Below, piece after piece: positions 1,675 to 34,021 of a DNA stretch of 64,000 nt. The translations under genes were made by a program, and so were the position numbers. Numbering within the stretch: the first letter of the stretch is position 1; every line of letters begins with the position of its first letter. Source of the stretch: Candidatus Latescibacterota bacterium. GTDB lineage: Bacteria > Latescibacterota > UBA2968 > UBA8231. The stretch is taken from positions 1,248,001-1,312,000 of the forward strand of contig CBDETK010000013.1 in assembly GCA_965242865.1 (NCBI GenBank), in the 5' to 3' direction. The notes beneath the pieces were generated by a model. It made no database searches. It was not told the origin of the DNA and saw only the letters and a list, made by a program, of their open reading frames with translations.

Positions 1675-3723
1675 ATGAAGTGCTCCGCATTTGATCGGAT
1701 CGCCCGGTTCGGCTTTATCCTGCTCATCGTCGTCCTCGCCGGGCTGGGCACCGCCCACATCCTCGTCCGCACGGCCACCTACGGCACCGCGTTCGGCACG
1801 GACTCCGCACTTTTCCTGTCCACGGCCCTGAACTTCCTCGCCGGCGAGGGCTGGCGGGATTTCGGAGGGGCCCCGCTGGTGGGCTGGCCGCCGTTGTTCC
1901 CCCTGCTGCTGGCGGCCTTCGGTTGGGTTGGCATCGAGCCGCTGGAGGCAGGGCGGTGGATCAACGCCGCGGCCTTTGGGCTGACCATCTTGGTAGCCGG
2001 CCTCTATCTGCGCTCCCAGCTCCGGTTGCAGGGGCTGGCGCTGGCCGCCAGCGTGGTCATCGCGGCCTCCGTTCCCCTGAGCTATTTCGCGGCAGGCTTC
2101 TTGACCGATCCCCTCTTCGTCTTGTTTACGCTCCTCGCCTTGATCCAGTTGGCGGCCTTCCTCCAGCGCGGTGGGTGGACGCCCCTGCTGTGGGGCGCGG
2201 TGTTTACCGCCTTAGCCGCGCTGACCCGCTATCCGGGCGTGGTGCTGATCAGCACCGGCGTCCTCCTGCTTGCTCCCCTCGCCCGGCTAAGGCACACCCT
2301 CGCCTTTGGCGCGTGCTCGTCCCTGCCCTTGTTGCCGGTATTGGCGCACAATTGGACGGTCTCCGGGTCCCTCGCAGGGGTGCGAAAAGGCTCGGCTCAA
2401 CCCCTATCCGAGGGGCTGAGCCAGACAGCCAATATATTCTGGAAATGGGCCATTCCCCCGCACAGGCCGGACGAACTAGTCGATTATCTCCTGTGGAGGG
2501 TGACCGGGCTGGGTGCGCCGGACTGGTTCGGTTCTCTCCTATGGACGACGACCGGGCTGGTTGTTGCGGCGGCGGTGGCGGTTGTCGTGCTATCTGGGCG
2601 CGGCTTAGGCATGGGCGAAAATCGGACCGCGCCGGCGTATTTCGGCCTAGCACCGGCTCTACTTTTCGGGGGGTTCGCCAGCGTTTACCTCGCATGCATG
2701 GTAGTAGTCTTTCCAATAATGCTCCCGGTGGCAATCTACGACCGCTACCTGCTGCCGGTGTATGTGCCGTTGCTGTTAGCGGCCGTGTTGCTGCTCGATC
2801 GGTTCCTGTCCATTGAGGTTGCGGGCCGGGTGGCCGTGGCTAAGTGGGGTCTGGCATCCCTCGTCTTGCTGGGGACCCTCGCCCACATCGGCTTCTCGGC
2901 GCAGAGAAATCTCCATCTTACCACCCAAGCGTATGTATCCGGGTTCCCAGAGGATGGGGCTTACAACGTCGCCTATTGGCGACATCACGCGACCCTGAAT
3001 TACGTTAAGGCCCACCTCCGCGATGGCAGGATTTACAGCAACAACCCATTCGTTGTCTATTTTGCCGCTCGGACCGCCGCCTTCGGCCAACCGCCGAATT
3101 TGCCGAGTGAGCTACGCAATTGGACGCAGGATGCGAGGTGGTGGGTCGAAGGCGGCGAAGACGAAGTGTATATCGTCTGGATCAAAGGCGACTATCGGGC
3201 TCAGTATCACGACTACAACCACTTTGACATTCGCTTCCTGCCCGGCGTAGAGGTGGTGGCCGACTTGTCCGACGGCGTGGTCTTCCGCGTAACGGCGGTC
3301 AAACCGTTCGATGAAGACAGGGTTCGCGCCGAGAAAAAACGCTACCAAGAACGCTACGTGGAGCAACTCCTCGCACAGGCCGGCGAGCGGGTGGTTCGCG
3401 CCGACTGGGACGTGTACCGCAAGGGACACAAGCTGACCTACTTCAAAAAGCCGTGTGCCCCGGCCGACGTGCAGGCCAAGTTCATTTTGCACATCTACCC
3501 CGCCGACCCGGGCGTCCTTTCCATCGCCCGCAGGCGGCACGGCTTTGACAACCTCGGCTTCCATTTCGACCAACTCAGCGCACTACACGCCATGCAGGTC
3601 GCCGACCAGTGTATCGCGATCGTCGAGCTGCCCGACTACGCCATCGACCGCATCCGGGTCGGCCAATGGATTGCCAACGAGAACCGCACCCGCTGGGATG
3701 CGGAGTTTCCGGCGAGCCGGTGA
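1675..3723 (+). CDS. GT-C fold (ArnT/PMT-like) membrane glycosyltransferase, paralog 1
   Basis: Many TM segments; DS motif after TM1, WPPLFP, TDPLF, TRYPG and DRYLLP; extracytoplasmic domain plus a C-terminal beta domain with two Cys. Confidence 0.8.
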   Translation: MKCSAFDRIARFGFILLIVVLAGLGTAHILVRTATYGTAFGTDSALFLSTALNFLAGEGWRDFGGAPLVGWPPLFPLLLAAFGWVGIEPLEAGRWINAAAFGLTILVAGLYLRSQLRLQGLALAASVVIAASVPLSYFAAGFLTDPLFVLFTLLALIQLAAFLQRGGWTPLLWGAVFTALAALTRYPGVVLISTGVLLLAPLARLRHTLAFGACSSLPLLPVLAHNWTVSGSLAGVRKGSAQPLSEGLSQTANIFWKWAIPPHRPDELVDYLLWRVTGLGAPDWFGSLLWTTTGLVVAAAVAVVVLSGRGLGMGENRTAPAYFGLAPALLFGGFASVYLACMVVVFPIMLPVAIYDRYLLPVYVPLLLAAVLLLDRFLSIEVAGRVAVAKWGLASLVLLGTLAHIGFSAQRNLHLTTQAYVSGFPEDGAYNVAYWRHHATLNYVKAHLRDGRIYSNNPFVVYFAARTAAFGQPPNLPSELRNWTQDARWWVEGGEDEVYIVWIKGDYRAQYHDYNHFDIRFLPGVEVVADLSDGVVFRVTAVKPFDEDRVRAEKKRYQERYVEQLLAQAGERVVRADWDVYRKGHKLTYFKKPCAPADVQAKFILHIYPADPGVLSIARRRHGFDNLGFHFDQLSALHAMQVADQCIAIVELPDYAIDRIRVGQWIANENRTRWDAEFPASR

Positions 3724-3826
3724 TACCGGACGCCGCGTCGCCCGGTGCATTCCGAGCCGCTGGATAACCGCATAGAGGGCAGAAGATCGCCCTAACTTGC
3801 GGGGCATCTATGAGGGAGAGAATTTG

Positions 3827-6148
3827 ATGAAGTGCTCTGCATTTGAGCGGCTCGCCCGGTTGGGGCGCGACCCCTTCGCGCTGCTCATCGCCATCCTCGC
3901 CGGGCTGGGCACCGTCCACATCCTCGTCCGCACCGCCACCTACGGCGCCGCGGTCACCTACGACTCCTCATTTCTTCTGTCCACGGCCATAAACTGCCTC
4001 GCCGGCGAGGGTTGGCGGAACTTCACGGGCTACCCGCTGGTAGGATGGGCGCCCTTGTTTCCCCTGCTGCTGGCGGCCTTGGGTTGGCTTGGCATTGAGC
4101 CGTTTGAGGCGGGTCGGCTGCTCAACGCCACCGCCTTCGGGCTGACCATCTTCGCCGCGGGCGACTATCTGCGCTCGCATCTCCGGTCGCGGGGGCTGGT
4201 GCTGGCCGCGACCGCGACCATCGCGGTTTCCCTGCCCTTGAGCGATCTCGCGTCCCACTTCTTGACCGATTCCCTCTTCGTCCTGTGGACGCTCCTCGCC
4301 TTGATCCAATTGGCGTCCTTCCTCCAGCGCGGCGAGCGGACGCCCCTGCTGTTAGGCGCGGTTTTCGCTACGCTGGCCGCGCTGACCCGCTACCCGGGCG
4401 TGGTCCTGATCGGCGCCGGCGTCTTGTTGCTGCTGGTGCGACGCCCCCTGCCGCTGGCCGCCCGGTTGAAAGACGCCATCGTATTTGGGGCCGTCTCATC
4501 CTTGCCCCTCGCCGGGGTGCTGACGCGCAACTGGGCGGTCTCTGGAACCCTGACCGGGTATAGGAAAGGGGCGGGGCGGTCCCTGTTCGATGGGCTGGGC
4601 CAAGTGGCCGAGGTGTTCCGGGCGTGGGTGATTCCCCCGAATGCGCCGGACGGGGTTGGTGCTCTCCTGTGGATAGCGGCCGGGCTGGTGGTGGCAGCGG
4701 GGGCGGTCGTCGTGGTATCCGGTCGCGGCTTCGGCCTGAGCAAGCAGGACCGCGGCGCGCTCTTGGGGTTCCCATTCGCGGTGTTCACCGTAGCCTACCT
4801 CCTGTTCATAGTCGCCATCGTGCCGCTGGTGATCCACTCTCAGATCCCCGCCCGCTACCTGCTGCCGGTGTATGTGCCGCTGCTGTTGGCCGCGGCGTTG
4901 CTGCTCGACCGGTTCCTGTCCATTGAGGCGGCGAGCTGGATGGCAGCCGCCAAGTGGGGGCTGGCGTCCCTCGTCCTGCTGGGCACCCTCGCCCACGTCG
5001 GCTTCTCGGCGCACAGGAACCTGACTATTACCGCCGAAGCACGAGTAGCCGGGTTTGAACGCTGGACGTTCAATGGCTCCTACTGGGCATCTTCCGAGAC
5101 CCTGCAGTACGTCAGAACCAACCTTCGCGCTGGGACGATTTACAGCAACGGCCCCACCTTGGTGTGGTTTTGGGATCGGACCGCGGCCCCGGGAAAGCAC
5201 CAAAAAATCCCGGACGGGCTTCACCATTTGACGTCGGCCCTACTGGCGTGGAGCACTGACGGCAGCCCATATATCGCATGGATTCGGAGTGAAGAGTCTT
5301 TTTACGCCTACGACGACTTCGACCTCCGCTGCCTGCCCGGGGTGGAACCCGTGGCCGAACTGGCCGACGGGGTTGTATTCCGCGTAACGGCGACCGAACC
5401 GTTCGATGCGGACCGGCATCTCGCCCGCAAACAACGCTACGTGCAGCAACTCATCGAACAGGCCGGCGAGCAGGTGGGCCGCTCCGACTGGGACGTGTAC
5501 CGCAAGGGACGCACGCTGACCTACCACAAAAAGCCGTGTGCCCCCGCCGATGTGCAGGCGTATTTCGTGTTGCAAATCATCCCCGACGACCCAGCCGACC
5601 TGCCAGCCGACCGCCAGCCATACGGATCGGACTGGCTCGCCTTCGATTTCCACAGACGCGGCGGCATCCGGCTCGACGACCAGTGTGTGGTGAGCACCCA
5701 ACTCCCCGACTACGCCACCCGCCACATCCAAGTCGGCCAGTGGCAGGCCAGCGACAACCGCATGCTCTGGCAAATGAAGGCCGAGGGCACGATGGAGCAA
5801 CTCATCGAGCAGGCCAGCGAGCGAGTGGTCCGCGCCGGCTGGAGCGTGTACCGCAGGGAACGCGAGCTGATTTACCGCAAGCAGCCGTGTACCGCGGCCG
5901 ATGTGCAGGCGAAGTTCGTTTTGCACATCGTCCCGGCCGACCCGGCCGACCTGCCAGCCCACCGCAAACAGTACGATTCTGAGAATCTCGACTTCTATTT
6001 CGACCAGTTCGGCCTCCGGCTCGACGACCAATGTACGGTGCTCGCCCCGCTCCCCTCCTACCCCATCCGCACCATCTATATCGGCCAGTGGATTGCCGCC
6101 GAGAACCGCACCCTCTGGGAAGCGGAGTTGTCCGGGGCCGGAGATTGA
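3827..6148 (+). CDS. GT-C glycosyltransferase paralog 2, with tandemly duplicated C-terminal domain
   Basis: ATG after GAGGGAG; same motifs as paralog 1; two copies of the WxVYR...PC...QAxF.L...C...GQW domain. Confidence 0.8.
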   Translation: MKCSAFERLARLGRDPFALLIAILAGLGTVHILVRTATYGAAVTYDSSFLLSTAINCLAGEGWRNFTGYPLVGWAPLFPLLLAALGWLGIEPFEAGRLLNATAFGLTIFAAGDYLRSHLRSRGLVLAATATIAVSLPLSDLASHFLTDSLFVLWTLLALIQLASFLQRGERTPLLLGAVFATLAALTRYPGVVLIGAGVLLLLVRRPLPLAARLKDAIVFGAVSSLPLAGVLTRNWAVSGTLTGYRKGAGRSLFDGLGQVAEVFRAWVIPPNAPDGVGALLWIAAGLVVAAGAVVVVSGRGFGLSKQDRGALLGFPFAVFTVAYLLFIVAIVPLVIHSQIPARYLLPVYVPLLLAAALLLDRFLSIEAASWMAAAKWGLASLVLLGTLAHVGFSAHRNLTITAEARVAGFERWTFNGSYWASSETLQYVRTNLRAGTIYSNGPTLVWFWDRTAAPGKHQKIPDGLHHLTSALLAWSTDGSPYIAWIRSEESFYAYDDFDLRCLPGVEPVAELADGVVFRVTATEPFDADRHLARKQRYVQQLIEQAGEQVGRSDWDVYRKGRTLTYHKKPCAPADVQAYFVLQIIPDDPADLPADRQPYGSDWLAFDFHRRGGIRLDDQCVVSTQLPDYATRHIQVGQWQASDNRMLWQMKAEGTMEQLIEQASERVVRAGWSVYRRERELIYRKQPCTAADVQAKFVLHIVPADPADLPAHRKQYDSENLDFYFDQFGLRLDDQCTVLAPLPSYPIRTIYIGQWIAAENRTLWEAELSGAGD

Positions 6149-8067
6149 AACGGCTCATCGCCATCCTCGCCGGGCTGGGCACCGTCCACATCCTCGCCCG
6201 CACCGCCACCTACGGTGCCGCGGTCAACGCAGACACCACACTTCACCTCTCTACGGCCCTGAATTTCCTCGCCGGAGAGGGCTGGCAGGATTTCACGGGC
6301 GTACAGGCGGTGGAGTGGCCGCCCGGGTTCACCCTGCTGCTGGCGTTTGGCGGGCTTTTGGGCATTGAGCCGTGGGCGGCGGGTCGGCTGCTTAACGCCG
6401 CGGCCTTCGGGCTGACCATCCACGCCGCGGGCAACTATCTGCACTCGAATCTCCGGTCGCGGGGGCTGGCACTGGCCGCGTCCATGGCCATCGCGGCGTC
6501 CCTGCCGCTCACCTATTTCGCGTCCTACTGCATCACCGAGCCGCTCTTCGTCCTGTTCGCGCTCCTCGCCTTGATCCAACTGGCGACTTTCCTCCAGCGC
6601 GGCGAGCGGAGGCCCCTGCTATGGGCGGCGGTTTTCACTGCGCTGACCGCGCTGACCCGCTACCCGGGCGTGGTCCTGATCGGCACCGGCGTCCTCCTGC
6701 TGGTGCGACGCCCCCTGCCGCTGGCCGCCCGGCTGAAAGACGCCGTTGTATTTGGGGCCATCTCATCCTTGCCCCTCGCCGGTGTGCTGACGCACAACTG
6801 GGCGGTCTCCGGGACCTTGACCGGACGAAGAGATGGCTCGGGTCAGTCCCTAGCCGAGGGGTTGAGCCAAGTGGCCGAGGCATTCCGCGAGTGGGTCGTC
6901 CCCCCGAACGCGCCGGATGGGTTGGCGTATCTGCTGTGGCTGGCGGTCGGGTTAGTCGGGCTAGCCGGCGCGGTGGTCGTCCTGCGCCCCACCCGAAAGG
7001 GAGCGCCGCCGCCATCCTTTAGGTTGGAGCCGGCGCTCCCTTTCGGAGCGTTCGCCTTGATGTACCTCGTATTCATAATCGCCATCGTGCCCTTCACGGT
7101 GGGGTATGGCATCGACAGCCGCTACCTGCTGCCGGTGTACATGCCGCTGCTGTTGGTCGCGGTGTTCCTGCTCGATCGGTTCCTGTCCATCGAGACTACG
7201 GGCTGGATGGCTGCCGCCAAGTGGGGGCTGGCGTCCCTCGTCCTGCTAGGAGGCCTCGTCCACATCGGCTACTCGGCGCACGGGAACCTGACCATCACCG
7301 ACCAAGCCCGAGTAGCCGGGTTCGAGAACTGGACGTACAACGGGTCCTACTGGGAATCCTCCGAGACCCTGAAGTACATCCGAGATACCCGCATGGATGG
7401 CCGGATGTACAGCAACAACGCGTATCTTGCTTGGTTTGCAGACCGGACCGCGGCCCCGGGCAAGCACCAGCATCTCCCGGACGAGATTCACCGTTTGACG
7501 GCGGCCATACTGGAATGGAGCGCTGACGACAGCCCGTATATCGCATGGCTCCGGCGTGAAAAGTCTTTTTACGCCTACGACGAATTCGACCTCCGCTGCC
7601 TGCCCGGGGTGGAACCCGTGGCCGAACTGGACGATGGCGTCGTCTTCCGCGTAACGGCCGCCGAACCGTTCGATGCGGCAAGGCACCGCGCCCGCAAACA
7701 ACGCTACGTGCAGCAACTCGTCGAACAAGCCAGCGAGCGAGTAGGCCGCGCTGGCTGGGACGTGTACCGCACGGGACGCAAGCTGATTTACCGCAAACAG
7801 CCGTGCGCTTCCGCCGACGTGCAGGCCAAGCTCGTTTTGCACGTCATCCCCGTCGATCCGGCCGACTTGCCGACCGACCGCAAGCAGTACGGTTACGACA
7901 GCCTCGGCTTCTATTTCGACCAGCGCGAGAGCTTCTGGCTCGGCGACCAGTGCGTCGCGATCACCCAACTCCCCGCCTACCCCATCGGCCTCATCCGGGT
8001 CGGCCAGTGGATTTCTGTCGAGAACCGCACCCTCTGGGCAGCGGAGTTGTCCGGGGCCGAAGATTGA
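6145..8067 (+). CDS. GT-C glycosyltransferase paralog 3
   Basis: TTG start overlaps the upstream TGA (TTGA); DT variant of the DS motif, TEPLF, TRYPG and SRYLLP. Confidence 0.78.
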   Translation: MKRLIAILAGLGTVHILARTATYGAAVNADTTLHLSTALNFLAGEGWQDFTGVQAVEWPPGFTLLLAFGGLLGIEPWAAGRLLNAAAFGLTIHAAGNYLHSNLRSRGLALAASMAIAASLPLTYFASYCITEPLFVLFALLALIQLATFLQRGERRPLLWAAVFTALTALTRYPGVVLIGTGVLLLVRRPLPLAARLKDAVVFGAISSLPLAGVLTHNWAVSGTLTGRRDGSGQSLAEGLSQVAEAFREWVVPPNAPDGLAYLLWLAVGLVGLAGAVVVLRPTRKGAPPPSFRLEPALPFGAFALMYLVFIIAIVPFTVGYGIDSRYLLPVYMPLLLVAVFLLDRFLSIETTGWMAAAKWGLASLVLLGGLVHIGYSAHGNLTITDQARVAGFENWTYNGSYWESSETLKYIRDTRMDGRMYSNNAYLAWFADRTAAPGKHQHLPDEIHRLTAAILEWSADDSPYIAWLRREKSFYAYDEFDLRCLPGVEPVAELDDGVVFRVTAAEPFDAARHRARKQRYVQQLVEQASERVGRAGWDVYRTGRKLIYRKQPCASADVQAKLVLHVIPVDPADLPTDRKQYGYDSLGFYFDQRESFWLGDQCVAITQLPAYPIGLIRVGQWISVENRTLWAAELSGAED

Positions 8068-15105: not shown

Positions 15106-15150
15106 GGGTTCTGCCTTGGTTGCGGGTGGGATGGGTGGTATCCGCAACTG

Positions 15151-15165
15151 GCAAAAATCGTGCCA
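15151..15165 (-). promoter_or_regulatory. sigma54 -24/-12 promoter upstream of rpn
   Basis: Minus-strand TGGCACGATTTTTGC, GG-N10-GC, 46 nt upstream of the ATG. Confidence 0.6.
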
Positions 15166-15740: not shown

Positions 15741-15852
15741 TTGAGAATCCTCTTATATACGAGGTTAGAGAAGCTCACATGCCGTAGTCGTGGTTCGGTT
15801 CCTTATGAACCAAGCCGGTCCTGTTGGGCCAAACAAAAAACAGCGGACACGA

Positions 15853-23078: not shown

Positions 23079-23477
23079 CTAGACGAATACTGCGGGGGAA
23101 ACGCCGAACCGATTGGACAAAGCACGTATCTGCCGGACGTTCAGCACCCGCTTGCCGCCGAGGACCGCCGAAACAACCCCTTGCGAACCCACCTCTGGCA
23201 AGTCCGCCTCGGTCAGATCGTGCTCCTCCATGAGAAAACAAAGGGCCTCCACCCCCTCCAGCTCGGGCATGGGATGGTGTTGTTCCTCCCAAGCATGGAC
23301 AACCGCACCCAACGTATCGAGCAGAGAATACAGGGGATGCTGCTCATCCGTGCCCACTTCGTCGATCAGGCGGTTGAGACGCACCAGTGCCAAGTCATAT
23401 TCCTGCTCGTCCCGAATGCTGAGTAAGGCACTTACTTGCGTCCAAGATTGCTGAAGCGGCGGGGCGATGACACTCAT
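23079..23477 (-). CDS. higA: HigA-family HTH antitoxin
   Basis: IRDEQEYD...LLDTLG...WEEQH...LMEEHDL...GSQGVVS.VL.GKR.LNVRQIRALS.RFGVSPAVF; ATG overlaps the higB remnant stop. Confidence 0.8.
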   Translation of the reverse strand: MSVIAPPLQQSWTQVSALLSIRDEQEYDLALVRLNRLIDEVGTDEQHPLYSLLDTLGAVVHAWEEQHHPMPELEGVEALCFLMEEHDLTEADLPEVGSQGVVSAVLGGKRVLNVRQIRALSNRFGVSPAVFV

Positions 23478-23590
23478 GTCGTCCATTCTCCACGGTCGTA
23501 GGCTGGGTGCGTAAGGACATGGCGGATATATACTTTTCCCCGATTGAAGTGAATAGAGGCAATCAGGCGATACTTATTGCCGGCGATACG
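23474..23590 (-). pseudogene. higB: 5'-truncated HigB toxin remnant
   Basis: IAGNKYRLIASIHFNRGKVYIRHVLTHPAYDRGEWTT* is the typical HigB C-terminus; the N-terminal half is absent. Confidence 0.75.
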
Positions 23591-23659
23591 GTATCGCAAT
23601 CTGCGATATATTGCAATAAGCGGTCAGTCCGCCGCGATGCGGTTGAGAAACCTCGGCGG

Positions 23660-24042
23660 GCCGTAGACTCCATAACTTTTCTGTCCACGGCCACGAACTT
23701 CCTCGCGGGAGAGGGCTGGTGGGATGTCAGGGGCGACCCGCTGGTGGGATGGCCGCCGTTGTTCCCCCTGCTGCTGGCGGCCTCGGGTTGGGTCGGCCTT
23801 GATGCAGACCGGACCGCCGCCTCGGGAAAACACCAGCGTCTCCCGGACGAGCTTCACGATGTGATACCTCACATAATGGCGACATGGCGACCGGCGGCAC
23901 CGGCGCGCATATCGTTTGGTTCAGGAGGCAAAAGAATTTTTACGACGACGACGACATGAACCTCCGTCTCCTGCCCGGCGTGGAACCCGTGGCCAAACTG
24001 GCCGATGGCGTAGTATTCCGCGTCTGGGACGTGGACTTTTAG
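23660..24042 (+). pseudogene. Collapsed GT-C paralog remnant made of three spliced segments
   Basis: DSITFLSTATNFLAGEGW...GWVGLD | ADRTAASGKHQ...GVVFRV | WDVDF*; junctions near 23803 and 24023. Confidence 0.8.
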
Positions 24043-25756: not shown

Positions 25757-25861
25757 TGAAGATTTGAATAAAAAAGCCGCGACGCATCCTGAGTATCAAC
25801 GAATAATAAATACGTAAGTGATTGTTTTTAATAAACTTATGAAACGAGGGGGGGGGGGGGG
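25757..25861 (+). promoter_or_regulatory. AT-rich upstream element with G14 tract, copy 2
   Basis: Near identical to 20233-20328; ATG at 25839 and G14 at 25848-25861. Confidence 0.6.
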
Positions 25862-27803
25862 AATTGCCTTCCTCGCCATCTTGGGCACCGCCCACATCCT
25901 CGTCCGCACCGCCCCCTCCGGAGCACTGCGCGGTGCCGACTCCATGAAATTCCTATACACCGCCATGAACTTCCTCGCGGGAGAAGGCTGGCAGGATTTC
26001 ATGGGCCTCCCGCTGACAGGATGGCCGCCCTTGTTCCCTCTGCTGCTGGCGGCCAGTGCCTGGGTTGGCATTGAGCCGGTGGAGGCGGGTCGGTGGATCA
26101 ACGCCACCGCCTTCGGGCTGACCATCCTCGCCGCGGGATGCTGGCTGTGCACGAATCTCCGGTCGCGGTGGCTGGTGCTGGCCACCACCGCGGTCGCGGC
26201 CTCCCTGCCCTTGAGCTATGAAGCGTCACGCTTCATTACCGAGCCCCTCTTCGTCCTGTTTACGCTCCTCGCCTTGATGCACTTGGCGTCCTTCCTCCAC
26301 CGGCGGACGGACGCGCCCCTGTGGTGGGCGGCGGGTTTCACCGCGCTGGCCGCGCTGACCCGCTATCCGGGCGTGGTGCTAATCGGCACCGGCGTCCTGC
26401 TGCTGCTGCCCCGCGCCCGGCTCAAGCAGACCCTCGGCTTTGGCGCGATCTCGTCCCTGCCCTTGCTGGCGGTATTGGTGCATAATTGGGCGGTCTCCGA
26501 GACCCTGACCGGGAGACCTACGAAGACCTCGGGACAGTCCCTATCCGCTGGGCTGAGCCAGATCGTTGATGTATTCAGTGAGTGGGTCGTCCCTCCGAAC
26601 GCACCGGATGGGGTGGCGTATCTGCTGTGGCTGGCGGTCGGGTTGGTCGGGCTGGCCGGCGCGGCGGTCGTCCTGCACCGGTCGCCAGCCGGACCCAGGG
26701 CCGCGCCGGCGTATTTCCGCTTGGAGCCGGCTATCCCATTCGGGGTATTCGCCGTAGCCTACTCCGTATCTCTGGTCGCTGTCGTGCCCTTCACGGTAAC
26801 TCAGATCGTCGACAGCCGCTACCTGCTGCCGGTGTATGTGCCGCTGCTATTGACGGCGGTGTTGCTGTTGGACCGGTTCCTGTCCATCGAGATGTGGGTC
26901 GGAGGGGTTGCCATCCGGTACGGTCTGGCGTCCCTCGTCTTGCTGGCGTCCCTCGCCCACACCGGCTTCTCAGCGCGAAGAAACCTCCAAATTACCGCCA
27001 GAATATTGGAAGGCGGGTGGGTTCCTCGCACTCCCTCGCAGGCAACTCATGCCTCTTGGCCACATTCCGATTGGCAATATTCCGAGACCCTGATGTACTT
27101 TAGGACCAACCGCATGGATGGCAGGATTTACACCAACGACATCGGATTCCTCGCTTGGTCTGAGGATTGGCTCACCGCCCCAGGAGAGTACCGAAAGTAC
27201 CGACAAATCCCGCGCGGGAAGCCAAACAGGAAGGGATGGACCGAGATCGAGGCCGGAGCCTATATCGTTTGGTTTGACAGAGCCCATGATCCAGTTCATT
27301 ATCGCTACGATGCCCTTGATTACCGTCTCCTGCCTGGCGTGGAAACCGTGGCCGAACTGGCCGACGGCGTGGTCCTCCGCGTACTCCGCCAAACGACAGC
27401 CGAACCCTTCGAGACACAAAGGCATCGCGCCCGCAAACAACGCTACATCAACCAACTCATCCAACAGGCTAACGAGCGAGTAGAGCGCGCTGGCTGGACC
27501 GTGTACCGCACCGGACGCAAGCTGACCTACTTCAAAAAGCCGTGTACCCGCGCCGATGTGCAGGCCAAGTTCGTCTTGCACGTCACCCCCGCCGATTTGG
27601 CCGACCTGCTCGCCCACCGTCAGCGATACGGCTTTGACAATCTCGACTTCTATTTCGACCGGCACGACGTCCGGCTCTACAACGAGTGTGTGGAGGTCAT
27701 CCGCCTCCCCCCTTACCCCATCGACCGTATCCGGGTCGGCCAGTGGATTTCCGCCGAGAACCGCACCCTCTGGGACGCAGAATTTGCGGGGGCCGGGGAT
27801 TGA
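25839..27803 (+). CDS. GT-C glycosyltransferase paralog 7 (G14 tract in frame, ON)
   Basis: MKRGGGGGIAFLAILG...ADSMKFL...TEPLF...TRYPG...SRYLLP. Confidence 0.8.
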   Translation: MKRGGGGGIAFLAILGTAHILVRTAPSGALRGADSMKFLYTAMNFLAGEGWQDFMGLPLTGWPPLFPLLLAASAWVGIEPVEAGRWINATAFGLTILAAGCWLCTNLRSRWLVLATTAVAASLPLSYEASRFITEPLFVLFTLLALMHLASFLHRRTDAPLWWAAGFTALAALTRYPGVVLIGTGVLLLLPRARLKQTLGFGAISSLPLLAVLVHNWAVSETLTGRPTKTSGQSLSAGLSQIVDVFSEWVVPPNAPDGVAYLLWLAVGLVGLAGAAVVLHRSPAGPRAAPAYFRLEPAIPFGVFAVAYSVSLVAVVPFTVTQIVDSRYLLPVYVPLLLTAVLLLDRFLSIEMWVGGVAIRYGLASLVLLASLAHTGFSARRNLQITARILEGGWVPRTPSQATHASWPHSDWQYSETLMYFRTNRMDGRIYTNDIGFLAWSEDWLTAPGEYRKYRQIPRGKPNRKGWTEIEAGAYIVWFDRAHDPVHYRYDALDYRLLPGVETVAELADGVVLRVLRQTTAEPFETQRHRARKQRYINQLIQQANERVERAGWTVYRTGRKLTYFKKPCTRADVQAKFVLHVTPADLADLLAHRQRYGFDNLDFYFDRHDVRLYNECVEVIRLPPYPIDRIRVGQWISAENRTLWDAEFAGAGD

Positions 27804-27806
27804 ACG

Positions 27807-29819
27807 ATGAAGTCCTCCGCCATCGAGCGGCTCACCCGGTTCGGACGCGACCCCTTCATGCTGCTTACCGCCTTGATCGCCGGGCTGGGCACTGCCCACA
27901 TCCTCGTCCGCACCGCCACCTACGGAGCGAAGACCACCTACGACTCCGTATATTTCCTGTACACGGCCCTGAATTTCCTCACCGGAGAGGGCTGGCGGGA
28001 TCTCTCAGACACCCCGCTGGTCGTATGGCCGCCCTTGTTTCCCCTGCTGCTAGCGGCCGGTGGCTGGGTTCGCATCGATCCGGTGGAGGCGGGTCGGTTT
28101 ATCAACGCCACCGCCTTCGGGCTGACCATCCTCGCCGCCGGGTGCTGGCTGCGCTCAAATCTCCGGTTGCAGTGGCTGGCACTGGCCGCCACCGCGACCA
28201 TCGCGGCGTCCTTGCCTTTGAGCCATTTCGCGTCGTGGATCAAGACCGACTTCCTCTTCGTCCTGTTGACGCTCCTCGCCTTGGTCCAGTTGGCGGCCTT
28301 CCTGCATCGCGGCGGGCGGACGCTGCTGCTGCTGGGCGCGGTTTGCACCGCGCTGGCCGCGGTGACCCGCTATCCGGGCGTGGTCTTGATAGGCGTCGGC
28401 GTCCTCATACTGCTGGGGCGGCGCACCCCGCCGCTGGCCGCCCGGTTGAAAGACGCCGTCGCATTTGGGGCTGTCTCATCCTTGCCCCTCTCCGGAGTGC
28501 TGATGTACAACTGGACGGTCTCCGGCACCCTGACCGGGGGGAGAAGCGGGGCGGGGCAGTCCCTGTCCGCTGGGCTGAACCAAGTGGCGGATGTATTCAG
28601 GGAGTGGGTGATTCCCCCGAATGTGCCAGACGGGTTTGGCTATCTCCTGTGGACCGCGGCTGGGCTGGTTGTAGCAGCGGGGGTGGTCGTCGTGGTGGTC
28701 GGTCGCGGCTTAGGCCTGGGAGGAAAGAATCGGCCGGCGTCGCCGTTCTTAGGGTTGGGGCCGGCACTCCCATTCGGGGGGTTCGCCGTAGCTTACCTCG
28801 GATTCATGGTCGCCATCGTGCCCTTCACGGTTTATCAGGGCATCGACAGCCGCTACCTGCTGCCGGTCTATGTCCCGCTGCTGTTGACGGTCGTGTTCTT
28901 GCTGGATCGGTTCCTGTCCATCGAGGCGACAGGTCGGATAGCCGCGGTCCGGTCCGGTCTGGCGTCCCTCGTCCTGCTGGCCGCCCTCGCCCACACCGGC
29001 TTCTCGGCGCACAGAAACCTCCGCATTACCGCCGCAGCTTATGTAGCCGGGTTCGAAAGCTGGACGCTCAATGGCTCCTACTGGGAACCTTCCGAGACCC
29101 TGAAGTACATCAGAACCCGCCTTAGCGATGGCAGGATTTTCAGCAACAACCCCCACCTTGCTTGGTTTTGGGATCGGACCGCCGCCCTCGGAAAGCACCG
29201 GGGGCTCCCGGGCAGGCTTCACAAGGTGATACCGCGCATAATGCGGAGTACCGAGGGCGACGGCGCACATATCGTTTGGCTCCATAATGAAAAACCAGGC
29301 TCTCTTCACGACGACGACCGGCACTACTACGATGCTCTGGACATCCGCTGCCTGCCCGGCGTGGAACCCGTGGCCGAGCTATCCGACGGGGTGGTGTTCC
29401 GCGTAACGGCGGCGACCGAACCGTTCGATGCGGACCGGCATCGCGCCCGGAGACAACGCTACTTAGACCAACTCCTCGAACCGGCCGGCGAGCGGGTGGT
29501 CCGCGCCGACTGGGACGTGTACCGCAACGGACGCAAGCTGACCTATCTCAAAAAGCCATGTACACCAGCCGATGTGCAGGCCAAGTTCGTTTTGCGCGTC
29601 ATCCCGGCCGACCCAGCCGATCTGCCAGCCTCCCGCCAGCGGTACGGCTTTGACAACCTCGGCTTCTATTTCGACCGGCGCGGCTTCCGGCACGGCGACC
29701 AGTGTATGGCGACCGTTCATCTACCCACCTACGCCATCGGCCACATCCGGGTCGGTCAGTGGATTTCCGCCGAGAACCGCACCCTCTGGGAAGCGGAGTT
29801 TGCGGGGGCCGGGGATTGA
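27807..29819 (+). CDS. GT-C glycosyltransferase paralog 8
   Basis: ATG 3 nt after the previous stop; YDSVYFL, TRYPG and SRYLLP. Confidence 0.8.
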   Translation: MKSSAIERLTRFGRDPFMLLTALIAGLGTAHILVRTATYGAKTTYDSVYFLYTALNFLTGEGWRDLSDTPLVVWPPLFPLLLAAGGWVRIDPVEAGRFINATAFGLTILAAGCWLRSNLRLQWLALAATATIAASLPLSHFASWIKTDFLFVLLTLLALVQLAAFLHRGGRTLLLLGAVCTALAAVTRYPGVVLIGVGVLILLGRRTPPLAARLKDAVAFGAVSSLPLSGVLMYNWTVSGTLTGGRSGAGQSLSAGLNQVADVFREWVIPPNVPDGFGYLLWTAAGLVVAAGVVVVVVGRGLGLGGKNRPASPFLGLGPALPFGGFAVAYLGFMVAIVPFTVYQGIDSRYLLPVYVPLLLTVVFLLDRFLSIEATGRIAAVRSGLASLVLLAALAHTGFSAHRNLRITAAAYVAGFESWTLNGSYWEPSETLKYIRTRLSDGRIFSNNPHLAWFWDRTAALGKHRGLPGRLHKVIPRIMRSTEGDGAHIVWLHNEKPGSLHDDDRHYYDALDIRCLPGVEPVAELSDGVVFRVTAATEPFDADRHRARRQRYLDQLLEPAGERVVRADWDVYRNGRKLTYLKKPCTPADVQAKFVLRVIPADPADLPASRQRYGFDNLGFYFDRRGFRHGDQCMATVHLPTYAIGHIRVGQWISAENRTLWEAEFAGAGD

Positions 29820-29919: not shown

Positions 29920-30000
29920 CTAAGAATAATAACATAAGTGATTGTTTTTACTGAATTTATGATGGGGAGGGGGGGGGGAGATTTACCCTCTCCACGGTGA
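29920..30000 (+). promoter_or_regulatory. Partial AT-rich element (copy 3) with G10 tract inside a 13-codon leader ORF
   Basis: CATAAGTGATTGTTTTTA...TTTATGATG; G10 at 29969-29978; ATG at 29959 reads MMGRGGGDLPSPR* and its TGA (29998-30000) overlaps GTG at 29997. Confidence 0.55.
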
Positions 30001-32051
30001 AGTCCTCCGCATTCGAGCGGCTCGCCCGGTTCGGGCGCGACCCCTTCATGCTGCTCATCGTCGTCCTCGCCGGGCTAGGCACCGCCCACATCCTCGTCCG
30101 CACCGCCGCCTATGGTGGGGGAGGCCACTACGACTCCGTGCGCTTCCTGTCCACAGCCATGAACTTCCTCGCCGGCGAGGGCTGGCGGGATTTCAGGGGC
30201 GAACCGATGACGCAGTGGCCGCCTTTGTTCCCTCTGCTGCTGGCGGCTCTCGGTTGGGTGGGCATCGAGCCGCAGGCGGCGGGTCGGTTTATCAACGCCA
30301 CGGCCTTTGGGCTGACTATCCTCGCCGCGGGCTGCTGGCTACGCTCAAATCTCCGGTCGCAGTGGCTGGCAGTGGTCGCCACCGCGACCATCGCGGCTTC
30401 CCTGCCCTTGAGCAAACTCGCGTCCTACTTCTTTAACGACTCCCTCTTCGTCCTGTTTACGCTCCTCGCCTTGATGCACTTGGCGTCCTTCCTCCATCGG
30501 CGGACGACCGCGCCCCTGTGGTGGGCGGCGGGTTTCACCGCGCTGGCCGCGCTGACCCGCTATCCGGGCGTGGCCCTGATCGGCGTCGGCGTCCTGCTGC
30601 TGCTGCCCCGCGCCCGGCTCAAGCAGACCCTCGGCTTTGGCGCGATCTCGTCCCTGCCCTTGCTGGGAGTATTGGCGCACAACTGGGCGGTCACCGGGCA
30701 CCTGACCCGGGCAACAAGGAACACCCTATCGGCTGGGATGAGCCAGACCGTCAAGGTGTTCGGCGAGTGGATCGTCCGGGCAACAGGGAACAGAACAAAT
30801 GCTACCGGGCAGTCCCTATCCGAGGGACTAAGCCAGACTGTCAATGTGTTTCGCGAGTGGGTCGTCCCCGCGAACGCGCCGGATGGGGTGGCGTATCTGC
30901 TGTGGCTGGCGGTCGCCGCAGTCGGGCTGGCCGGTGCCGCGGTCGTCCTGCACACCACCCGAATGCGAAGCGACGACAGCGGGAGAGCCCACGCATCGTA
31001 TTTCCATTTAGGGCCGGTTATCCCTTTCGGGGTGTTCGCCCTAGCCTATCCCGTATTCATGGTCGCTGTCGTGCCCTTAACGATTGATCAAGGCATCGAC
31101 AGCCGCTACCTGCTGCCGGTGTATGTGCCCCCGCTATTGGCGGCGGTGTTCCTGCTGGACCGGTTCCTGTCCATTGAGGCGGCAGGCTGGAGGGTTGCCG
31201 TCCGGTACGGTCTGGCGTCCCTCATCCTGCTCGGTGCCCTCGCCCACACCGGCTTATCGGCGCACAGAAACCTCCGTATTACCGCCAGAGCATTGGAAGA
31301 CGGGTACTTAGGGTTCTGGGCGGACAATACCTTTTGGCAACCTTCCGAGACCCTGAATTACATTAGGACCAACCACATGGACGGCAGGATTTACAGCAAC
31401 GATCCCTTCCTCGCTTGGTCTGAGGAGAAGATCGCCGCCCCGGGCAAGTACCGAATGATCCCGCACGGGAAGTCAAAGCAGAAGGGATGGACCGAGATCG
31501 AGGCCGGAGCCTATATCGTTTGGTTTGACAGACTCCATAATCCAAGGGGGCTTCGCTACGACTCCTTTGACTTCCGTCTGCTGCCCGACGTGGAAACCGT
31601 GGCCGAACTGGCCGACGGCGTGGTACTCCGCGTACTCCGCCGAACAACAGTCGGATCCCTCGATATACAAAGGCACGCCCGCAAACAACGCTACGTGGAC
31701 CAACTCATCCAACAGGCCAGCCAGCGAGTCGAGCGCGCCGGCTGGACCGTGTGCCGCACCGGACGCAAGCTGACCTACTTCAAAAACCCGTGTACCCTCG
31801 CCGACGTGCAGGCCAAGTTCGTCTTGCACGTCACCCCCGCCGACTTGGCCGACCTGCCCGCCTACCGCCAGCGATACGGCTTTGACAATCTCGACTTCTA
31901 TTTTGACCGGAGCGATGTCCGACGCGATAACCCGTGTGTGGAGATCATCCGACTCCCCGCTTACCCCATCGGTCGCATCCGAGTCGGTCAGTGGATTTCC
32001 AGAGAGAACCGCACCCTCTGGGACGCAGAGTTTGCGGGGGCCGGGGATTGA
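29997..32051 (+). CDS. GT-C glycosyltransferase paralog 9
   Basis: GTG start; HYDSVRFL, TRYPG and SRYLLP; internal duplication RAT...LSxGxSQTVxVFxEW. Confidence 0.8.
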   Translation: MKSSAFERLARFGRDPFMLLIVVLAGLGTAHILVRTAAYGGGGHYDSVRFLSTAMNFLAGEGWRDFRGEPMTQWPPLFPLLLAALGWVGIEPQAAGRFINATAFGLTILAAGCWLRSNLRSQWLAVVATATIAASLPLSKLASYFFNDSLFVLFTLLALMHLASFLHRRTTAPLWWAAGFTALAALTRYPGVALIGVGVLLLLPRARLKQTLGFGAISSLPLLGVLAHNWAVTGHLTRATRNTLSAGMSQTVKVFGEWIVRATGNRTNATGQSLSEGLSQTVNVFREWVVPANAPDGVAYLLWLAVAAVGLAGAAVVLHTTRMRSDDSGRAHASYFHLGPVIPFGVFALAYPVFMVAVVPLTIDQGIDSRYLLPVYVPPLLAAVFLLDRFLSIEAAGWRVAVRYGLASLILLGALAHTGLSAHRNLRITARALEDGYLGFWADNTFWQPSETLNYIRTNHMDGRIYSNDPFLAWSEEKIAAPGKYRMIPHGKSKQKGWTEIEAGAYIVWFDRLHNPRGLRYDSFDFRLLPDVETVAELADGVVLRVLRRTTVGSLDIQRHARKQRYVDQLIQQASQRVERAGWTVCRTGRKLTYFKNPCTLADVQAKFVLHVTPADLADLPAYRQRYGFDNLDFYFDRSDVRRDNPCVEIIRLPAYPIGRIRVGQWISRENRTLWDAEFAGAGD

Positions 32052-34021
32052 TGAAGTCCTCCGCCTTCGAGCGGCTCGCCCGGTTCGGGCGCGACCCCTT
32101 CGCGCTGCTCATCGTCGTCCTCGCCGGGCTAGGCACCGCCCACATCCTCGTCCGCACCGCCACCTACGGCCCGGCGAGCATCTACGACTCCATACGTTTC
32201 CTGTCCACAGCCATGAACTTCCTCGCGGGAGAGGGCTGGCGGGATTTCAAGGGCCTCCCGCTGACAGGATGGCCGCCTTTGTTCCCTCTGCTGCTAGCGG
32301 CCTTCGGTTGGGTAGGCATCGAGCCGCAGGCGGCGGGTCGGTTTATCAACGCCACCGCCTTCGGGCTGACCATCCTCGCCGCGGGGTGCTGGCTGCGCTC
32401 AAATCTCCGGTCGCGGTGGCTGGTGCTGACCGCCATCGCGACCATTACGGCCTCCCTGCCCTTGAGCCATTGGATGGCACATTTCATTACCGAGCCCCTC
32501 TTCGTCCTGTTTACGCTCCTCGCTTTGATGCACTTGGCGTCCTTCCTCCACCGGCGGACGGACGCGCCCCTGTGGTGGGCGGCGGGTTTCACCGCGCTGG
32601 CCGCGCTGACCCGCTATCCGGGCGTGGCCCTGATCGGCGTCGGCGTCCTGCTGCTGCTGCCCCGCGCCCGGCTCAAGCAGACCCTCGGCTTTGGCGCGAT
32701 CTCGTCCCTGCCCTTGCTGGGAGTATTGGCGCACAACTGGGCGGTTACCGGGCACCTGACCGAAGCAACAAGTAAAAAACCCCTGTTCGCTGAGCAGTCC
32801 CTAGCGGCTGGACTGATCCAGATCGTCAAAGTGTTCGGCGAGTGGGTCGTCCCCCCGAACGCGCCGGAGGGGGGGGCGTATTTGCTGTGTCTGGCGGTCG
32901 GGTTGGTCGGGCTGGCCGGCGCCGCGGTCGTCCTGCACCGCCACCCCGAATGCACCACGCCGGCGTATTCCCGTTTGGAGCCAGCTATCCCATTCGGGGT
33001 GTTCGCCGTAGCCTACCCGGTATTCATGATCGCCGTCGTGCCCTTCACGGTTAAGCAGGGCATCGACAGCCGCTACCTGCTGCCGGTCTATGTGCCGCTG
33101 CTGTTGACGGTCGTGTTCTTGCTGGATCGGTTCCTCTCCATCGAGGAGGTGGGCTGGAGGGTTGCCATCCGGTACGGTCTGGCGTCTCTCGTCCTGCTGG
33201 CGTTCCTCTCCCACATCGGCTTATCGGCGCACGGGAACCTCCGTATTACCGCCAGAGCATTGGAAGATGGGCAGGAAATTAGCTGGCGGGAAAACCCCGC
33301 CTTTTGGCAGCATTCCGAGACCCTGAATTACATTAGGACCAATCGCATGGATGGCAGGATTTACAGCAATAACCCCTTCCTCGCTTGGTCTGAGGAGAGG
33401 ATCGCCGCCCCGGGAAAGTACCGACAAATCCCGCACGGGAGGTCACACGGGAAGGGATGGACCGAGATCGAGGCCGGGGCCTATATCGTTTGGTTTGACA
33501 GAGCCCATGATCCAACTCGTTTTCGCTACGATGCCCTCGACTACCGTCTGCTGCCCGACGTGGAAACCGTGGCCGAACTGGCCGACGGCGTGGTCCTCCG
33601 CGTACTCCGCCAAACGACAGCCGAACCCTTCGATACACAAAGGCATCGCGCCCGCAAACAACACTACATCAACCAACTCATCCAACAGGCTAACGAGCGA
33701 GTGGAGCGCGCTGGCTGGACCGTGTACCGCACCGGACGCAAGCTGACTTACTTCAAAAAGCCGTGTACCCTCGCCGACGTGCAGGCCAAGTTCGTCTTGC
33801 ACGTCACCCCCGCCGATTTGGCCGCCCTGCCCGCCCACCGCCAGCGATACGGCTTTGACAATCTCGACTTCTATTTCGACCTGATCGGCGTCCGGCTCTA
33901 CAACGAGTGTGTGGAGGTCATCCGACTCCCCGCTTACCCCATCGGCCGCATCCGGGTCGGCCAGTGGATTTCCAGCGAGAACCGCACCCTCTGGGACGCG
34001 GAGTTTGCGCCGGGCCGGTGA
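32051..34021 (+). CDS. GT-C glycosyltransferase paralog 10
   Basis: TGATG overlap start; IYDSIRFL, TEPLF and SRYLLP; internal G8 at 32869-32876. Confidence 0.8.
   Translation: MKSSAFERLARFGRDPFALLIVVLAGLGTAHILVRTATYGPASIYDSIRFLSTAMNFLAGEGWRDFKGLPLTGWPPLFPLLLAAFGWVGIEPQAAGRFINATAFGLTILAAGCWLRSNLRSRWLVLTAIATITASLPLSHWMAHFITEPLFVLFTLLALMHLASFLHRRTDAPLWWAAGFTALAALTRYPGVALIGVGVLLLLPRARLKQTLGFGAISSLPLLGVLAHNWAVTGHLTEATSKKPLFAEQSLAAGLIQIVKVFGEWVVPPNAPEGGAYLLCLAVGLVGLAGAAVVLHRHPECTTPAYSRLEPAIPFGVFAVAYPVFMIAVVPFTVKQGIDSRYLLPVYVPLLLTVVFLLDRFLSIEEVGWRVAIRYGLASLVLLAFLSHIGLSAHGNLRITARALEDGQEISWRENPAFWQHSETLNYIRTNRMDGRIYSNNPFLAWSEERIAAPGKYRQIPHGRSHGKGWTEIEAGAYIVWFDRAHDPTRFRYDALDYRLLPDVETVAELADGVVLRVLRQTTAEPFDTQRHRARKQHYINQLIQQANERVERAGWTVYRTGRKLTYFKKPCTLADVQAKFVLHVTPADLAALPAHRQRYGFDNLDFYFDLIGVRLYNECVEVIRLPAYPIGRIRVGQWISSENRTLWDAEFAPGR

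Follow-up and report, generated by a model that had tools for sequence, protein, structure and literature searches.

The stretch of DNA analysed here (the window, 64,000 nucleotides) carries nine plus-strand genes which, judging from a structural model, encode paralogous membrane glycosyltransferases of an uncharacterised GT-C family, and in each of them a short loop with an aspartate at its core lies between the anchors HILxRTA and GEGW. The g1 gene (1675..3723, 682 aa) has the loop TAFGTDSALFL at 1786-1818 with the Asp codon at 1801-1803, and g2 (3824..6148, 774 aa), which contains an additional copy of a C-terminal domain of about 110 residues, has AAVTYDSSFLL at 3947-3979 (Asp codon 3962-3964). 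The product of g3 (6145..8067) has a short N-terminus, the gene starting from a TTG that overlaps the TGA stop of g2 (TTGA), and its loop is AAVNADTTLHL (6217-6249; Asp codon 6232-6234, within an Asp-Thr pair); g4 (8064..10049; loop PAVGTDSVILL at 8136-8168, Asp codon 8151-8153) similarly has a TTG start overlapping the g3 stop. Next, g5 (20348..22981, 877 aa; loop AVIGTDSIVFL at 20390-20422, Asp codon 20405-20407) is truncated at the N-terminus inside TM1 and has its C-terminal domain partly repeated twice, and it is followed by g6 (25818..27803; ALRGADSMKFL at 25923-25955, Asp codon 25938-25940) and by g7 (27807..29819, 670 aa; AKTTYDSVYFL at 27927-27959), which serves as the reference for all residue numbers and in which the aspartate is Asp46 (27942-27944). 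The last two are g8 (29997..32051; GGGHYDSVRFL at 30117-30149, Asp codon 30132-30134) and g9 (32048..34021; PASIYDSIRFL at 32171-32203, Asp codon 32186-32188), the ATG of g9 coming directly after the g8 stop (TGATG). Immediately downstream of the array, genes for an NAD-dependent sugar epimerase/dehydratase (PF01370, E 6.7e-41) and a sugar-phosphate nucleotidyltransferase (PF00483, E 1.7e-39) occupy 34762..36752 on the plus strand, a context of sugar-nucleotide supply, and the window also contains a defence island.

The nine genes are part of a family of 34 full-length paralogs and five fragments in the same genome, where the copies are 56-77% identical and arranged in tandem arrays. A second genome, labelled Latescibacterota, has at least 46 copies, while among 18 genomes of the same genus 16 give no match and two give a single match each. 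Stretches identical to the window are also present in contigs from runs labelled sponge metagenome. No description of the family was found in the literature searched, including a term search of one sponge Latescibacterota paper, which is no proof of absence.

Variation in the loop around the invariant aspartate

The first-pass annotation had read the nine loops as strings of constant length, and on checking the sequence all nine proved letter-exact and of one length, with small insertions confined to three of the 34 full-length copies of the genome. The aspartate is present in all nine window copies and in 33 of the 34; that it is the only invariant residue is a slight overstatement, since the residue after it is Ser in eight of the nine and Thr in the other, and the closing Leu is invariant as well. 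The near-identity of the flanking DNA is evident from 528 pairs of 33 copies, in which the 90 flank bases differ by 11.9% on average compared with 57% for the four hypervariable codons (12 bases; in g7, codons 44-45 at 27936-27941 and 48-49 at 27948-27953), and there are pairs with only two of the 90 flank bases different yet six to seven of the 12 hypervariable ones. The four-site signature is unique in each of the 34 copies, a six-site signature is unique in all 80 copies of both genomes pooled, and identity at the hypervariable sites is 0.14-0.16, independent of backbone identity. The other variable spots noted earlier are likewise real, and correspond in g7 to residues 69 (28011-28013) and 73 (28023-28025) after GEGW(R/Q)D, residue 140 (28224-28226) before the T-D/E motif and residues 245-247 (28539-28547) after TLTG; codons 343 (28833-28835) and 466 (29202-29204) are also hypervariable.

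At codons 48 and 49 it is the first and second positions that vary while the third positions are kept, with nucleotide diversities for positions 1/2/3 of 0.66/0.51/0.32 and 0.74/0.59/0.28, respectively. Such NNC, NNT, NNG and NNA codons in a conserved scaffold superficially resemble the targets of diversity-generating retroelements (DGRs) and could suggest targeted hypermutation of the loop by a DGR or a similar templated mutator. That origin is, however, very improbable. The only RVT_1 match in the 6.0-Mb genome (C13:5488215-5488628) is Drt4 (PADLOC, E 1.8e-152), a defence-type reverse transcriptase about 4.2 Mb distant from the window, so that no DGR reverse transcriptase was found there. 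A blastn search with 141 bases around the loop gave 35 genomic matches, all of them within paralog ORFs or fragments, hence there is no free-standing template repeat in the genome. Next to the variable codons the adenines are conserved (ACC, TAC and GAC are examples, as is the AAC of Asn56, which is invariant), and this argues against variation confined to template adenines; nor do the variable sites form a single tract, being spread across some 1.4 kb. Moreover, the variation is among fixed paralogs, unlike that of DGR targets, which occurs inside one gene. On these grounds DGR-type mutagenesis was rejected.

Predicted fold and active site

The AlphaFold2 model of g7 (pLDDT 91.9, pTM 0.92) has ArnT (5f15) as its best Foldseek match with an E-value of 2.7e-8, and in VIA-align comparisons it resembles Pmt4 (Z 24.0, 359 residues aligned, rmsd 3.9), Pmt1-Pmt2 (23.9), ALG12 (23.2), ArnT (23.0, 435 aligned) and STT3 (23.0), the aligned range across the GT-C_A matches being 359-461 residues. 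Eleven membrane helices are predicted per protein, together with a C-terminal domain in the periplasm, and the fold match, with Z of 23-24, indicates the seven-helix N-terminal module of the GT-C_A class. PMC13503287 and PMC12041299 describe the first loop of this class, periplasmic or luminal, as containing two helices, JM1 and JM2, with the catalytic Asp of all GT-C_A enzymes at the tip of JM1. In the g7 model two helices, residues 45-58 and 77-87, are indeed found between TM1 (16-35) and TM2 (92-118), and Asp46 is the second residue of the former, the first helix past TM1. The residue is at least 90% conserved across 78 diverse relatives, and an Asp occupies position 46 in 33 of the 34 paralogs of the window's genome and in 39 of 46 in the second genome. 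By position and conservation Asp46 is thus the predicted catalytic residue at the JM1 tip, and the earlier statement that the acidic residue of loop 1 is catalytic in GT-C enzymes agrees with what PMC12041299 and PMC13503287 report and fits the g7 fold. Two arginines at periplasmic helix ends are also conserved, Arg349 without exception (80 of 80 copies) and Arg188 nearly so (78 of 80).

The likeness to PMT (GT39) and ArnT (GT83), both GT-C_A enzymes, thus extends to the fold, the two juxtamembrane helices, the Asp on the JM1 tip and the periplasmic C-terminal domain. For PMT there are in addition weak profile matches, although these stay below the Pfam gathering thresholds, with best scores of 21.7 against 26.1 bits for PMT_2 (PF13231) and 20.7 against 22.7 bits for PMT (PF02366); g1 has a PMT_2 match of E 2.6e-4, below the cut-off, and four of the nine window paralogs give no match to either model at E <=0.01. 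On profile scores the family therefore appears related to PMT at the clan level while lying outside the PMT_2 and PMT models, and a search of the PDB with the family sequence profile gave no GT-C chain at E <0.1. In contrast to PMT and ArnT, the family motif is Asp-Ser and not Asp-Glu, the C-terminus consists of an α/β part and a β-sandwich of about 110 residues that is repeated in some members, and the family is 9-14% identical in sequence to the solved structures. PMT and ArnT are furthermore generally present in one or few copies per genome, whereas the family here has 34-46.

Selection at the hypervariable codons

Selection was estimated at 622 sites in the window's genome with a home-made FEL/FUBAR-like procedure using GY94-F3x4. 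The whole-gene M0 omega is 0.43, and at FEL p<0.05 purifying selection is found at 228 of the 622 sites and beta > alpha at 34. No other codon has a signal as strong as those of 48 and 49, the two residues past Asp-Ser (p 5e-9 and 7e-13), with alpha of at most 0.2, beta of 7-10 and a summed pairwise pN/pS of 2.5. Synonymous sites are unsaturated, as seen from the median pairwise dS of 0.455. The diversifying selection suspected earlier on residues bracketing the Asp is therefore supported at 48 and 49, where dN greatly exceeds dS, whereas for the equally variable residues 44 and 45 dN/dS is about 1 and not significant when alpha is free, because the synonymous rate is also raised there (alpha 3, beta 3 at residue 44; alpha 25, beta 3-5 at residue 45, which on a local tree is nominally beta < alpha, p 0.005). 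Sites called positive are enriched in A/T-ending codons (mean AT3 0.67 vs 0.18), and in the F3x4 model such codons depress the estimated alpha; a test with alpha fixed at the gene mean (=1) was therefore run as a guard, one that does not separate fast neutral sites from selected ones. Here 20 of the 622 sites pass Bonferroni correction, namely 44, 45, 48, 49, 69, 73, 140, 245-247, 299, 314, 332, 343, 450, 466, 494, 495, 504 and 505; residues 44 and 45 pass only under this setting, and four of the 20 fall within six consecutive codons, a clustering beyond chance (simulated P = 0.0045).

With alpha fixed, 23 of 636 sites pass Bonferroni correction among the 46 copies of the second genome, and include 44, 45, 48, 49, 69, 73, 247, 299, 343, 466, 494, 504 and 505. 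Codon 49, the +3 residue, reaches a FEL p of 9e-18 there, while codons 48 (p 0.25) and 69 (p 0.41) are not significant in that genome with alpha free. A periplasmic surface under relaxed constraint, drifting fast with no adaptive meaning and leaving specificity unchanged, would be consistent with pN/pS values of 0.98 over the full 10-codon loop and 1.03 over the five codons preceding the Asp, with the behaviour of residues 44 and 45 when alpha is free and with the fairly high whole-gene omega. It is nevertheless unlikely, since neutral drift caps dN/dS at 1, well below what codons 48 and 49 show, these codons are found again in the second genome, and purifying selection acts strongly on the adjoining Asp46, Ser47, Phe50 and Leu51.

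Recombination among the copies is evident, as the local and whole-gene trees differ, and it was handled via the local tree, without formal partitioning. Short conversion tracts could in principle even out the scaffold and reassort pieces of the loop, and the resulting homoplasy on a single tree would inflate the rates. Besides the discordant trees, this would account for a left-flank pS of 0.14 against 0.34 gene-wide, for synonymous rates elevated across codons 39-46, for hypervariable-site identity being equally low at any backbone identity, and for the g3 loop, which reappears letter for letter in one copy of the second genome. Homoplasy, however, lifts synonymous and non-synonymous counts alike, while codons 48 and 49 vary at positions 1 and 2 only and have the lowest alpha in the region; on the local-segment tree, built without the loop, their p values are 8e-9 and 2e-13. 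The uniqueness of all 34 signatures argues that segments are not merely copied around, and if the flanks undergo conversion yet codons 48 and 49 stay diverse, this itself implies selection, so an artefact of this kind appears improbable.

By the topology of the g7 model, periplasmic loops contain 10 of the 14 selected sites of the membrane domain, against a share of 27% of the tested sites in that domain (binomial p 7e-4). Sites 140, 299, 314 and 332 lie elsewhere, 299 and 314 on the cytoplasmic side. Diversifying selection on exposed loops could also be read as an arms race, in which a phage or host factor binds the periplasmic face and residues change to escape binding and not to alter the substrate, and both the window-identical stretches in sponge-labelled runs and the defence island would suit such a scenario. 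The sites are, however, periplasmic ones on an inner-membrane enzyme, adjoining the predicted catalytic Asp and not at the cell surface, and escape would not require 34-46 copies to be kept together in a genome while purifying selection acts on them overall; we consider this explanation quite improbable.

Proposed diversification of substrate specificity

The reading we favour, at a probability of roughly two in three, is that ordinary mutation and diversifying selection on substrate specificity have shaped a large GT-C_A paralog family. By analogy with PMT, ArnT and the ALG enzymes, the copies would each draw their sugar from a polyprenyl-phosphate donor on the periplasmic side of the membrane; Asp46, on the JM1 tip, would be the catalytic base, and the conserved Arg188 and Arg349 would hold the phosphate of the donor. 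Paralogs that arose by duplication and changed by ordinary point mutation would then have come under diversifying selection at a few periplasmic residues: those at -2, -1, +2 and +3 around Asp46, two between the juxtamembrane helices, and further ones in the second, fourth and fifth periplasmic loops and the periplasmic domain. Each copy would thereby acquire its own active-site signature while the scaffold is conserved, probably helped by gene conversion, and the copies would then probably differ from one another in acceptor, linkage or donor sugar. The interpretation in the first-pass annotation is thus partly supported: diversifying selection is found at codons 48 and 49, a role in substrate specificity is what we infer from it, and the proposed phage- or host-exposed surface is the weaker half, because the loops of this inner-membrane enzyme are on its periplasmic side.

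GT-C enzymes take part in building or decorating the cell envelope, with lipid A, O-antigen, arabinan and protein glycans as examples. The 34 copies, compared with no match in 16 of 18 sampled congeners, point to an organism that invests unusually heavily in diverse envelope glycans. A bolder idea, possible but doubtful, is that of a standing "specificity library", in which 34-46 GT-C enzymes per genome with unique active-site signatures, their diversity held by selection, write a large and possibly switchable glycan or glycoprotein repertoire. If so, an uncultured and apparently sponge-associated bacterium would use the library to modify its periplasmic or surface glycans or glycoproteins, a glycan counterpart of antigen-variation gene families with the catalytic loop of a membrane-bound glycosyltransferase as its basis.

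In GtrC-type systems different GT-C enzymes share a common donor pool and have different acceptors. No GtrA/GtrB pair is found beside the arrays, the single GtrA-like gene of the genome being at C13:3.57 Mb, and unlike in those systems, where the GT-C families are unrelated, the copies here are close mutual paralogs. The proposed activity, decoration of an existing glycan by a GT-C enzyme with a polyprenyl-phosphate sugar, would nonetheless resemble that of the serotype-converting enzymes and of other three-component periplasmic glycosylation systems (PMC11127046). The family may also serve as a natural experiment on GT-C acceptor specificity, offering dozens of close paralogs on one scaffold with changes concentrated around the predicted catalytic Asp; the candidate specificity determinants are positions -2, -1, +2 and +3, the stretch that links JM1 to JM2, and spots in periplasmic loops 2, 4 and 5. 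A comparable case is provided by the mycobacterial GT-C enzymes Emb, Aft and PimE, which according to PMC12041299 comprise several paralogs per genome with a common catalytic Asp and differing acceptor and linkage. They are among the fold matches, with Z of 15-20, but while the mycobacterial sets are old and deeply diverged with known products, the copies of the present family differ chiefly at a few selected sites.

Gene arrangement and predicted fold

Nine intact genes (g1-g9, 640-877 codons) of a putative GT-C membrane glycosyltransferase family lie on the + strand between positions 1675 and 34021 of the window, arranged as the tandem arrays g1-g4 and g6-g9, with g5 standing alone. g3 and g4 begin at TTG codons that share bases with the TGA of the gene before, and the ATG of g9 directly follows the stop of g8. 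The window proteins are 56-63% identical to g1, and the nine loop sequences between HILxRTA and GEGW, re-read from the window, agree in every letter with those listed in the first-pass annotation. Genes for a sugar epimerase/dehydratase and a sugar-phosphate nucleotidyltransferase are found downstream of the second array, and the only GtrA-like gene of the genome is distant from the window (contig C13, 3.57 Mb). Directly after g4, a single-copy gene (10076-11761, + strand) encodes a 561-aa multi-pass membrane protein that has no Pfam or NCBIfam match and no paralog in the genome and may be another envelope enzyme. A 162-aa ORF at 23471-23956 (+ strand), in which the equivalent of residues 36-91 of g7 (periplasmic loop 1) is fused to that of residues 456-481 (periplasmic domain), looks like a family remnant.

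The paralogs give PMT_2/PMT matches in Pfam, all of them sub-threshold, and far-sub-threshold NCBIfam matches only, to Agl23 (20.5 bits) and the LA_3751/LA_3752 family (22.3 bits); a family profile search of PDB sequences returned no GT-C match at E <0.1. With 78 aligned sequences as input, AlphaFold2 gave a confident model of g7 (670 aa, used here for residue numbering; pLDDT 91.9, pTM 0.92), whose best Foldseek matches are ArnT (E 2.7e-8), AftD, STT3, Pmt4, ALG12 and PglB. The modelled fold is GT-C_A, as judged from VIA-align Z-scores of 24.0 to Pmt4, 23.9 to Pmt1-Pmt2, 23.2 to ALG12 and 23.0 to both ArnT and STT3, which are tied within one unit. A weak profile match of residues 428-498 (window 29088-29300), in the α/β part of the periplasmic domain, to the Bacillus halodurans RNase H (E 0.004) is probably due to chance.

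From the modelled helices and the positive-inside rule, the protein is predicted to have 11 membrane helices and an N-in topology. Lys or Arg is found at 9 of 46 positions of the proposed cytoplasmic segments versus 7 of 105 positions of the periplasmic segments, and the C-terminal domain (residues 415-670) is placed in the periplasm. Folded alone from a 7-sequence alignment, this domain gives a poor model (pLDDT 59.7), and the likeness of its last ~110 residues to FN3/Ig-like β-sandwiches is weak (best Z 7.2); therefore, no function is drawn from the resemblance. The ~110-aa domain has two conserved cysteines. It occurs in 2-10 copies in many of the public relatives, with up to 10 matched stretches in a protein, and g2 (3824-6148) carries one extra C-terminal copy and g5 (20348-22981) two partial extras. 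The start of g5 falls within TM1, and the gene may be truncated.

In the model, the invariant loop aspartate, Asp46, occupies the second position of helix 45-58, which is the first to follow TM1; a published account places the catalytic base in the first of the two loop-1 helices (PMC13503287). Asp46 is conserved in at least 90% of the 78-sequence alignment. Across the paralogs of the window's genome and of a second, expanded genome (G031, from a record titled Latescibacterota), Arg35, Arg349 and Asp367 are invariant (80/80), and Asp/Glu148 (79/80), Arg188 (78/80) and Glu61 (76/80) are nearly so. The predicted catalytic Asp is absent from seven of the 46 G031 copies (three Gly, two Ala, one Asn and one Glu); their ORFs are intact, for example at C1:1466757, 1473460, 1481434, 2004757 and 668207, and the encoded proteins may be inactive or re-purposed.

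Selection around the predicted catalytic aspartate

The first-pass annotation had proposed diversifying selection on the residues bracketing the Asp, to be examined by site-wise dN/dS; the observation is real, and the core of that inference survives the test. Selection at the positions +2 and +3 from Asp46 (codons 48 and 49), the two strongest sites of the whole protein, is solid, and selection may also act at the positions -2 and -1 (codons 44 and 45). The codon alignment comprised 34 copies and 622 columns with an occupancy of at least 90%, and a divergent copy (p31, 42% identical) was excluded from all tests. Synonymous sites are unsaturated, since the median pairwise dS is 0.455, and a one-ratio GY94-F3x4 fit gave an omega of 0.43 and a kappa of 2.8. 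On a home-made FUBAR/FEL-like grid of 20 x 20 values of the synonymous (alpha) and non-synonymous (beta) rates, the posterior P(beta>alpha) reached 0.9 or more at 29 of the 622 sites, and likelihood-ratio tests (p<0.05) gave beta>alpha at 34 sites and beta<alpha at 228. Codon 48 has an alpha of 0.2 and a beta of 7 (p 5e-9) and codon 49 an alpha of 0.02 and a beta of 10 (p 7e-13), and a local tree that covers the first 130 codons except the loop gives p values of 8e-9 and 2e-13, respectively. Summed over pairs, pN/pS reaches 2.5 at codons 48 and 49, compared with 0.98 in the 10-codon loop, 0.37 and 0.20 in its flanks and 0.66 in the gene. The third position is kept in both codons (NNA at 48, NNT at 49), and positions 1 and 2 vary. 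Residue-type diversity is greatest at 44 and 45, with 13 and 14 types in 33-34 copies; beta>alpha was not shown there because alpha is high there too, at 3 for codon 44 and at 25, the top of the grid, for codon 45, which on the local tree is nominally beta<alpha (p 0.005).

Codons ending in A or T, which pull alpha down under F3x4, are enriched at the sites called positive (0.67 versus 0.18), and for this reason the test was repeated with alpha fixed at the gene mean. In this form, which does not distinguish fast neutral change from selection, beta exceeded 1 at 45 sites (p<0.05), and 20 passed Bonferroni correction, including 44, 45, 48 and 49. In the g7 model, these 20 are placed in periplasmic loop 1 (44, 45, 48, 49, 69 and 73), at the periplasmic end of TM3 before the T-D/E motif (140), in periplasmic loop 4 after TLTG (245, 246 and 247), in TM8 (299), cytoplasmic loop 4 (314) and TM9 (332), in periplasmic loop 5 six residues before the invariant Arg349 (343), and in the periplasmic domain (450, 466, 494, 495, 504 and 505). 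Of the 14 selected sites in the membrane domain, 10 fall in periplasmic loops, to which only 27% of the tested membrane-domain positions belong (binomial p 7e-4; over all location classes, Fisher p 5e-4), and four sites within six codons are unlikely by chance (P = 0.0045). The substrate cavity of GT-C enzymes is described as walled by loops 1 and 4 together with the luminal domain (PMC13503287), and the clustering on the modelled topology fits this picture.

The same analysis of 46 copies and 636 sites in G031 gave an omega of 0.44 and 23 Bonferroni sites, and 13 sites are common to both genomes (44, 45, 48, 49, 69, 73, 247, 299, 343, 466, 494, 504 and 505). With alpha free, codons 49 (p 9e-18), 73, 343, 466, 504 and 505 are still significant in G031, and codons 48 (p 0.25) and 69 (p 0.41) are not.

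Origin of the variation

The near identity of the flanking DNA noted in the first pass is borne out: 90 flank bases differ by 11.9% on average versus 57% in the four hypervariable codons, and pairs with 2/90 flank differences show 6-7 differences in the 12 hypervariable bases. Pairs whose N-terminal halves are otherwise 50-70% identical and pairs at 80-90% alike have an identity of 0.14-0.16 at the six loop-1 sites. The four-site signature is unique in each of the 34 copies, as is the six-site signature in all 80 copies of both genomes; the g3 loop is matched letter for letter in one G031 copy. Reciprocal-best pairs between the genomes number only seven for the whole core or six for the N-terminal part, with hypervariable-site identities of 0.26 and 0.19, respectively, over a background of 0.14. 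Among public runs, none of which is recorded as RNA, one contig of run X3 spans 27896-28117, including the g7 loop, with no other letters, and no loop position is among the 41 contig differences listed out of these and a further 223; the data are short assembled Logan contigs with cross-mapping among paralogs, in which rare variants are invisible.

Targeted mutagenesis by a diversity-generating retroelement (DGR) was considered and rejected. The window's genome has a single reverse transcriptase match, ~4.2 Mb from the window, and it is a Drt4 defence enzyme, not a DGR-type one; no template repeat exists, since all 35 copies of the loop DNA in the genome fall within family ORFs; and the selected sites are scattered over ~1.4 kb. 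The adenines adjoining the variable codons are conserved, which argues against the adenine bias that the first-pass annotation had suggested looking for. At C13:5486715-5490128, the Drt4-type gene (E 1.8e-152) adjoins one for a 335-aa protein with weak matches to pAgo-associated domains.

The mechanism is most likely an ordinary one, in which a GT-C glycosyltransferase gene would have been duplicated and then changed by point mutation, the scaffold would have undergone some gene conversion, and diversifying selection would act on the residues around the predicted catalytic Asp, yielding many enzymes of differing specificities. Synonymous diversity is 0.14 in the 13 codons preceding the loop (the TM1 codons, window 1756-1800 and equivalents) versus 0.34 gene-wide, and synonymous rates are raised at codons 39-46; together, these may reflect gene conversion or a local hot spot. 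A nucleotide-level constraint at the 5′ end is another possible cause.

Family expansion and genomic surroundings

A phmmer scan over all stop-to-stop ORFs of the window's assembly (13 contigs, 6.0 Mb) identified 39 family ORFs, 34 of them full length and many in tandem arrays. G031 gave 81 matches, about two dozen of which form a run of genes at 1.454-1.502 Mb, and at least 46 full-length copies were recovered from 11 of its regions. Public proteins include 6301 representative clusters at E <=1e-3 and 869 at E <=1e-30; among named records the closest come from G031, a MAG titled Candidatus Latescibacterota, and MAGs titled Caldilineaceae, Dehalococcoidia, Vicinamibacterales, Binatia and Longimicrobiales hold single copies that are more distant. 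Of 30 sampled relatives of the window's genome, some of them incomplete, only four have a family match at E <=1e-30, and among 18 sampled genomes of the same genus, likewise partly incomplete, two have one match each and none was found in the rest searched. Unusual features are the size of the expansion, at 34 and 46 copies, its patchy distribution and the concentration of selection on the catalytic loop of the conserved module.

Elsewhere in the window, a stretch of low GC (0.53) extends over 15800-18000; the - strand ORFs at 15853-16920 and 14206-15258 have no Pfam match, and a 661-aa ORF at 17687-19672 has no matches. The - strand genes at 49964-59348, encoding a UvrD-type helicase, a 1273-aa MmeI/Eco57I-like methyltransferase with a target-recognition domain and a SNF2/ResIII helicase, resemble a defence island, and the GC content falls to 0.54 at 50-52 kb.
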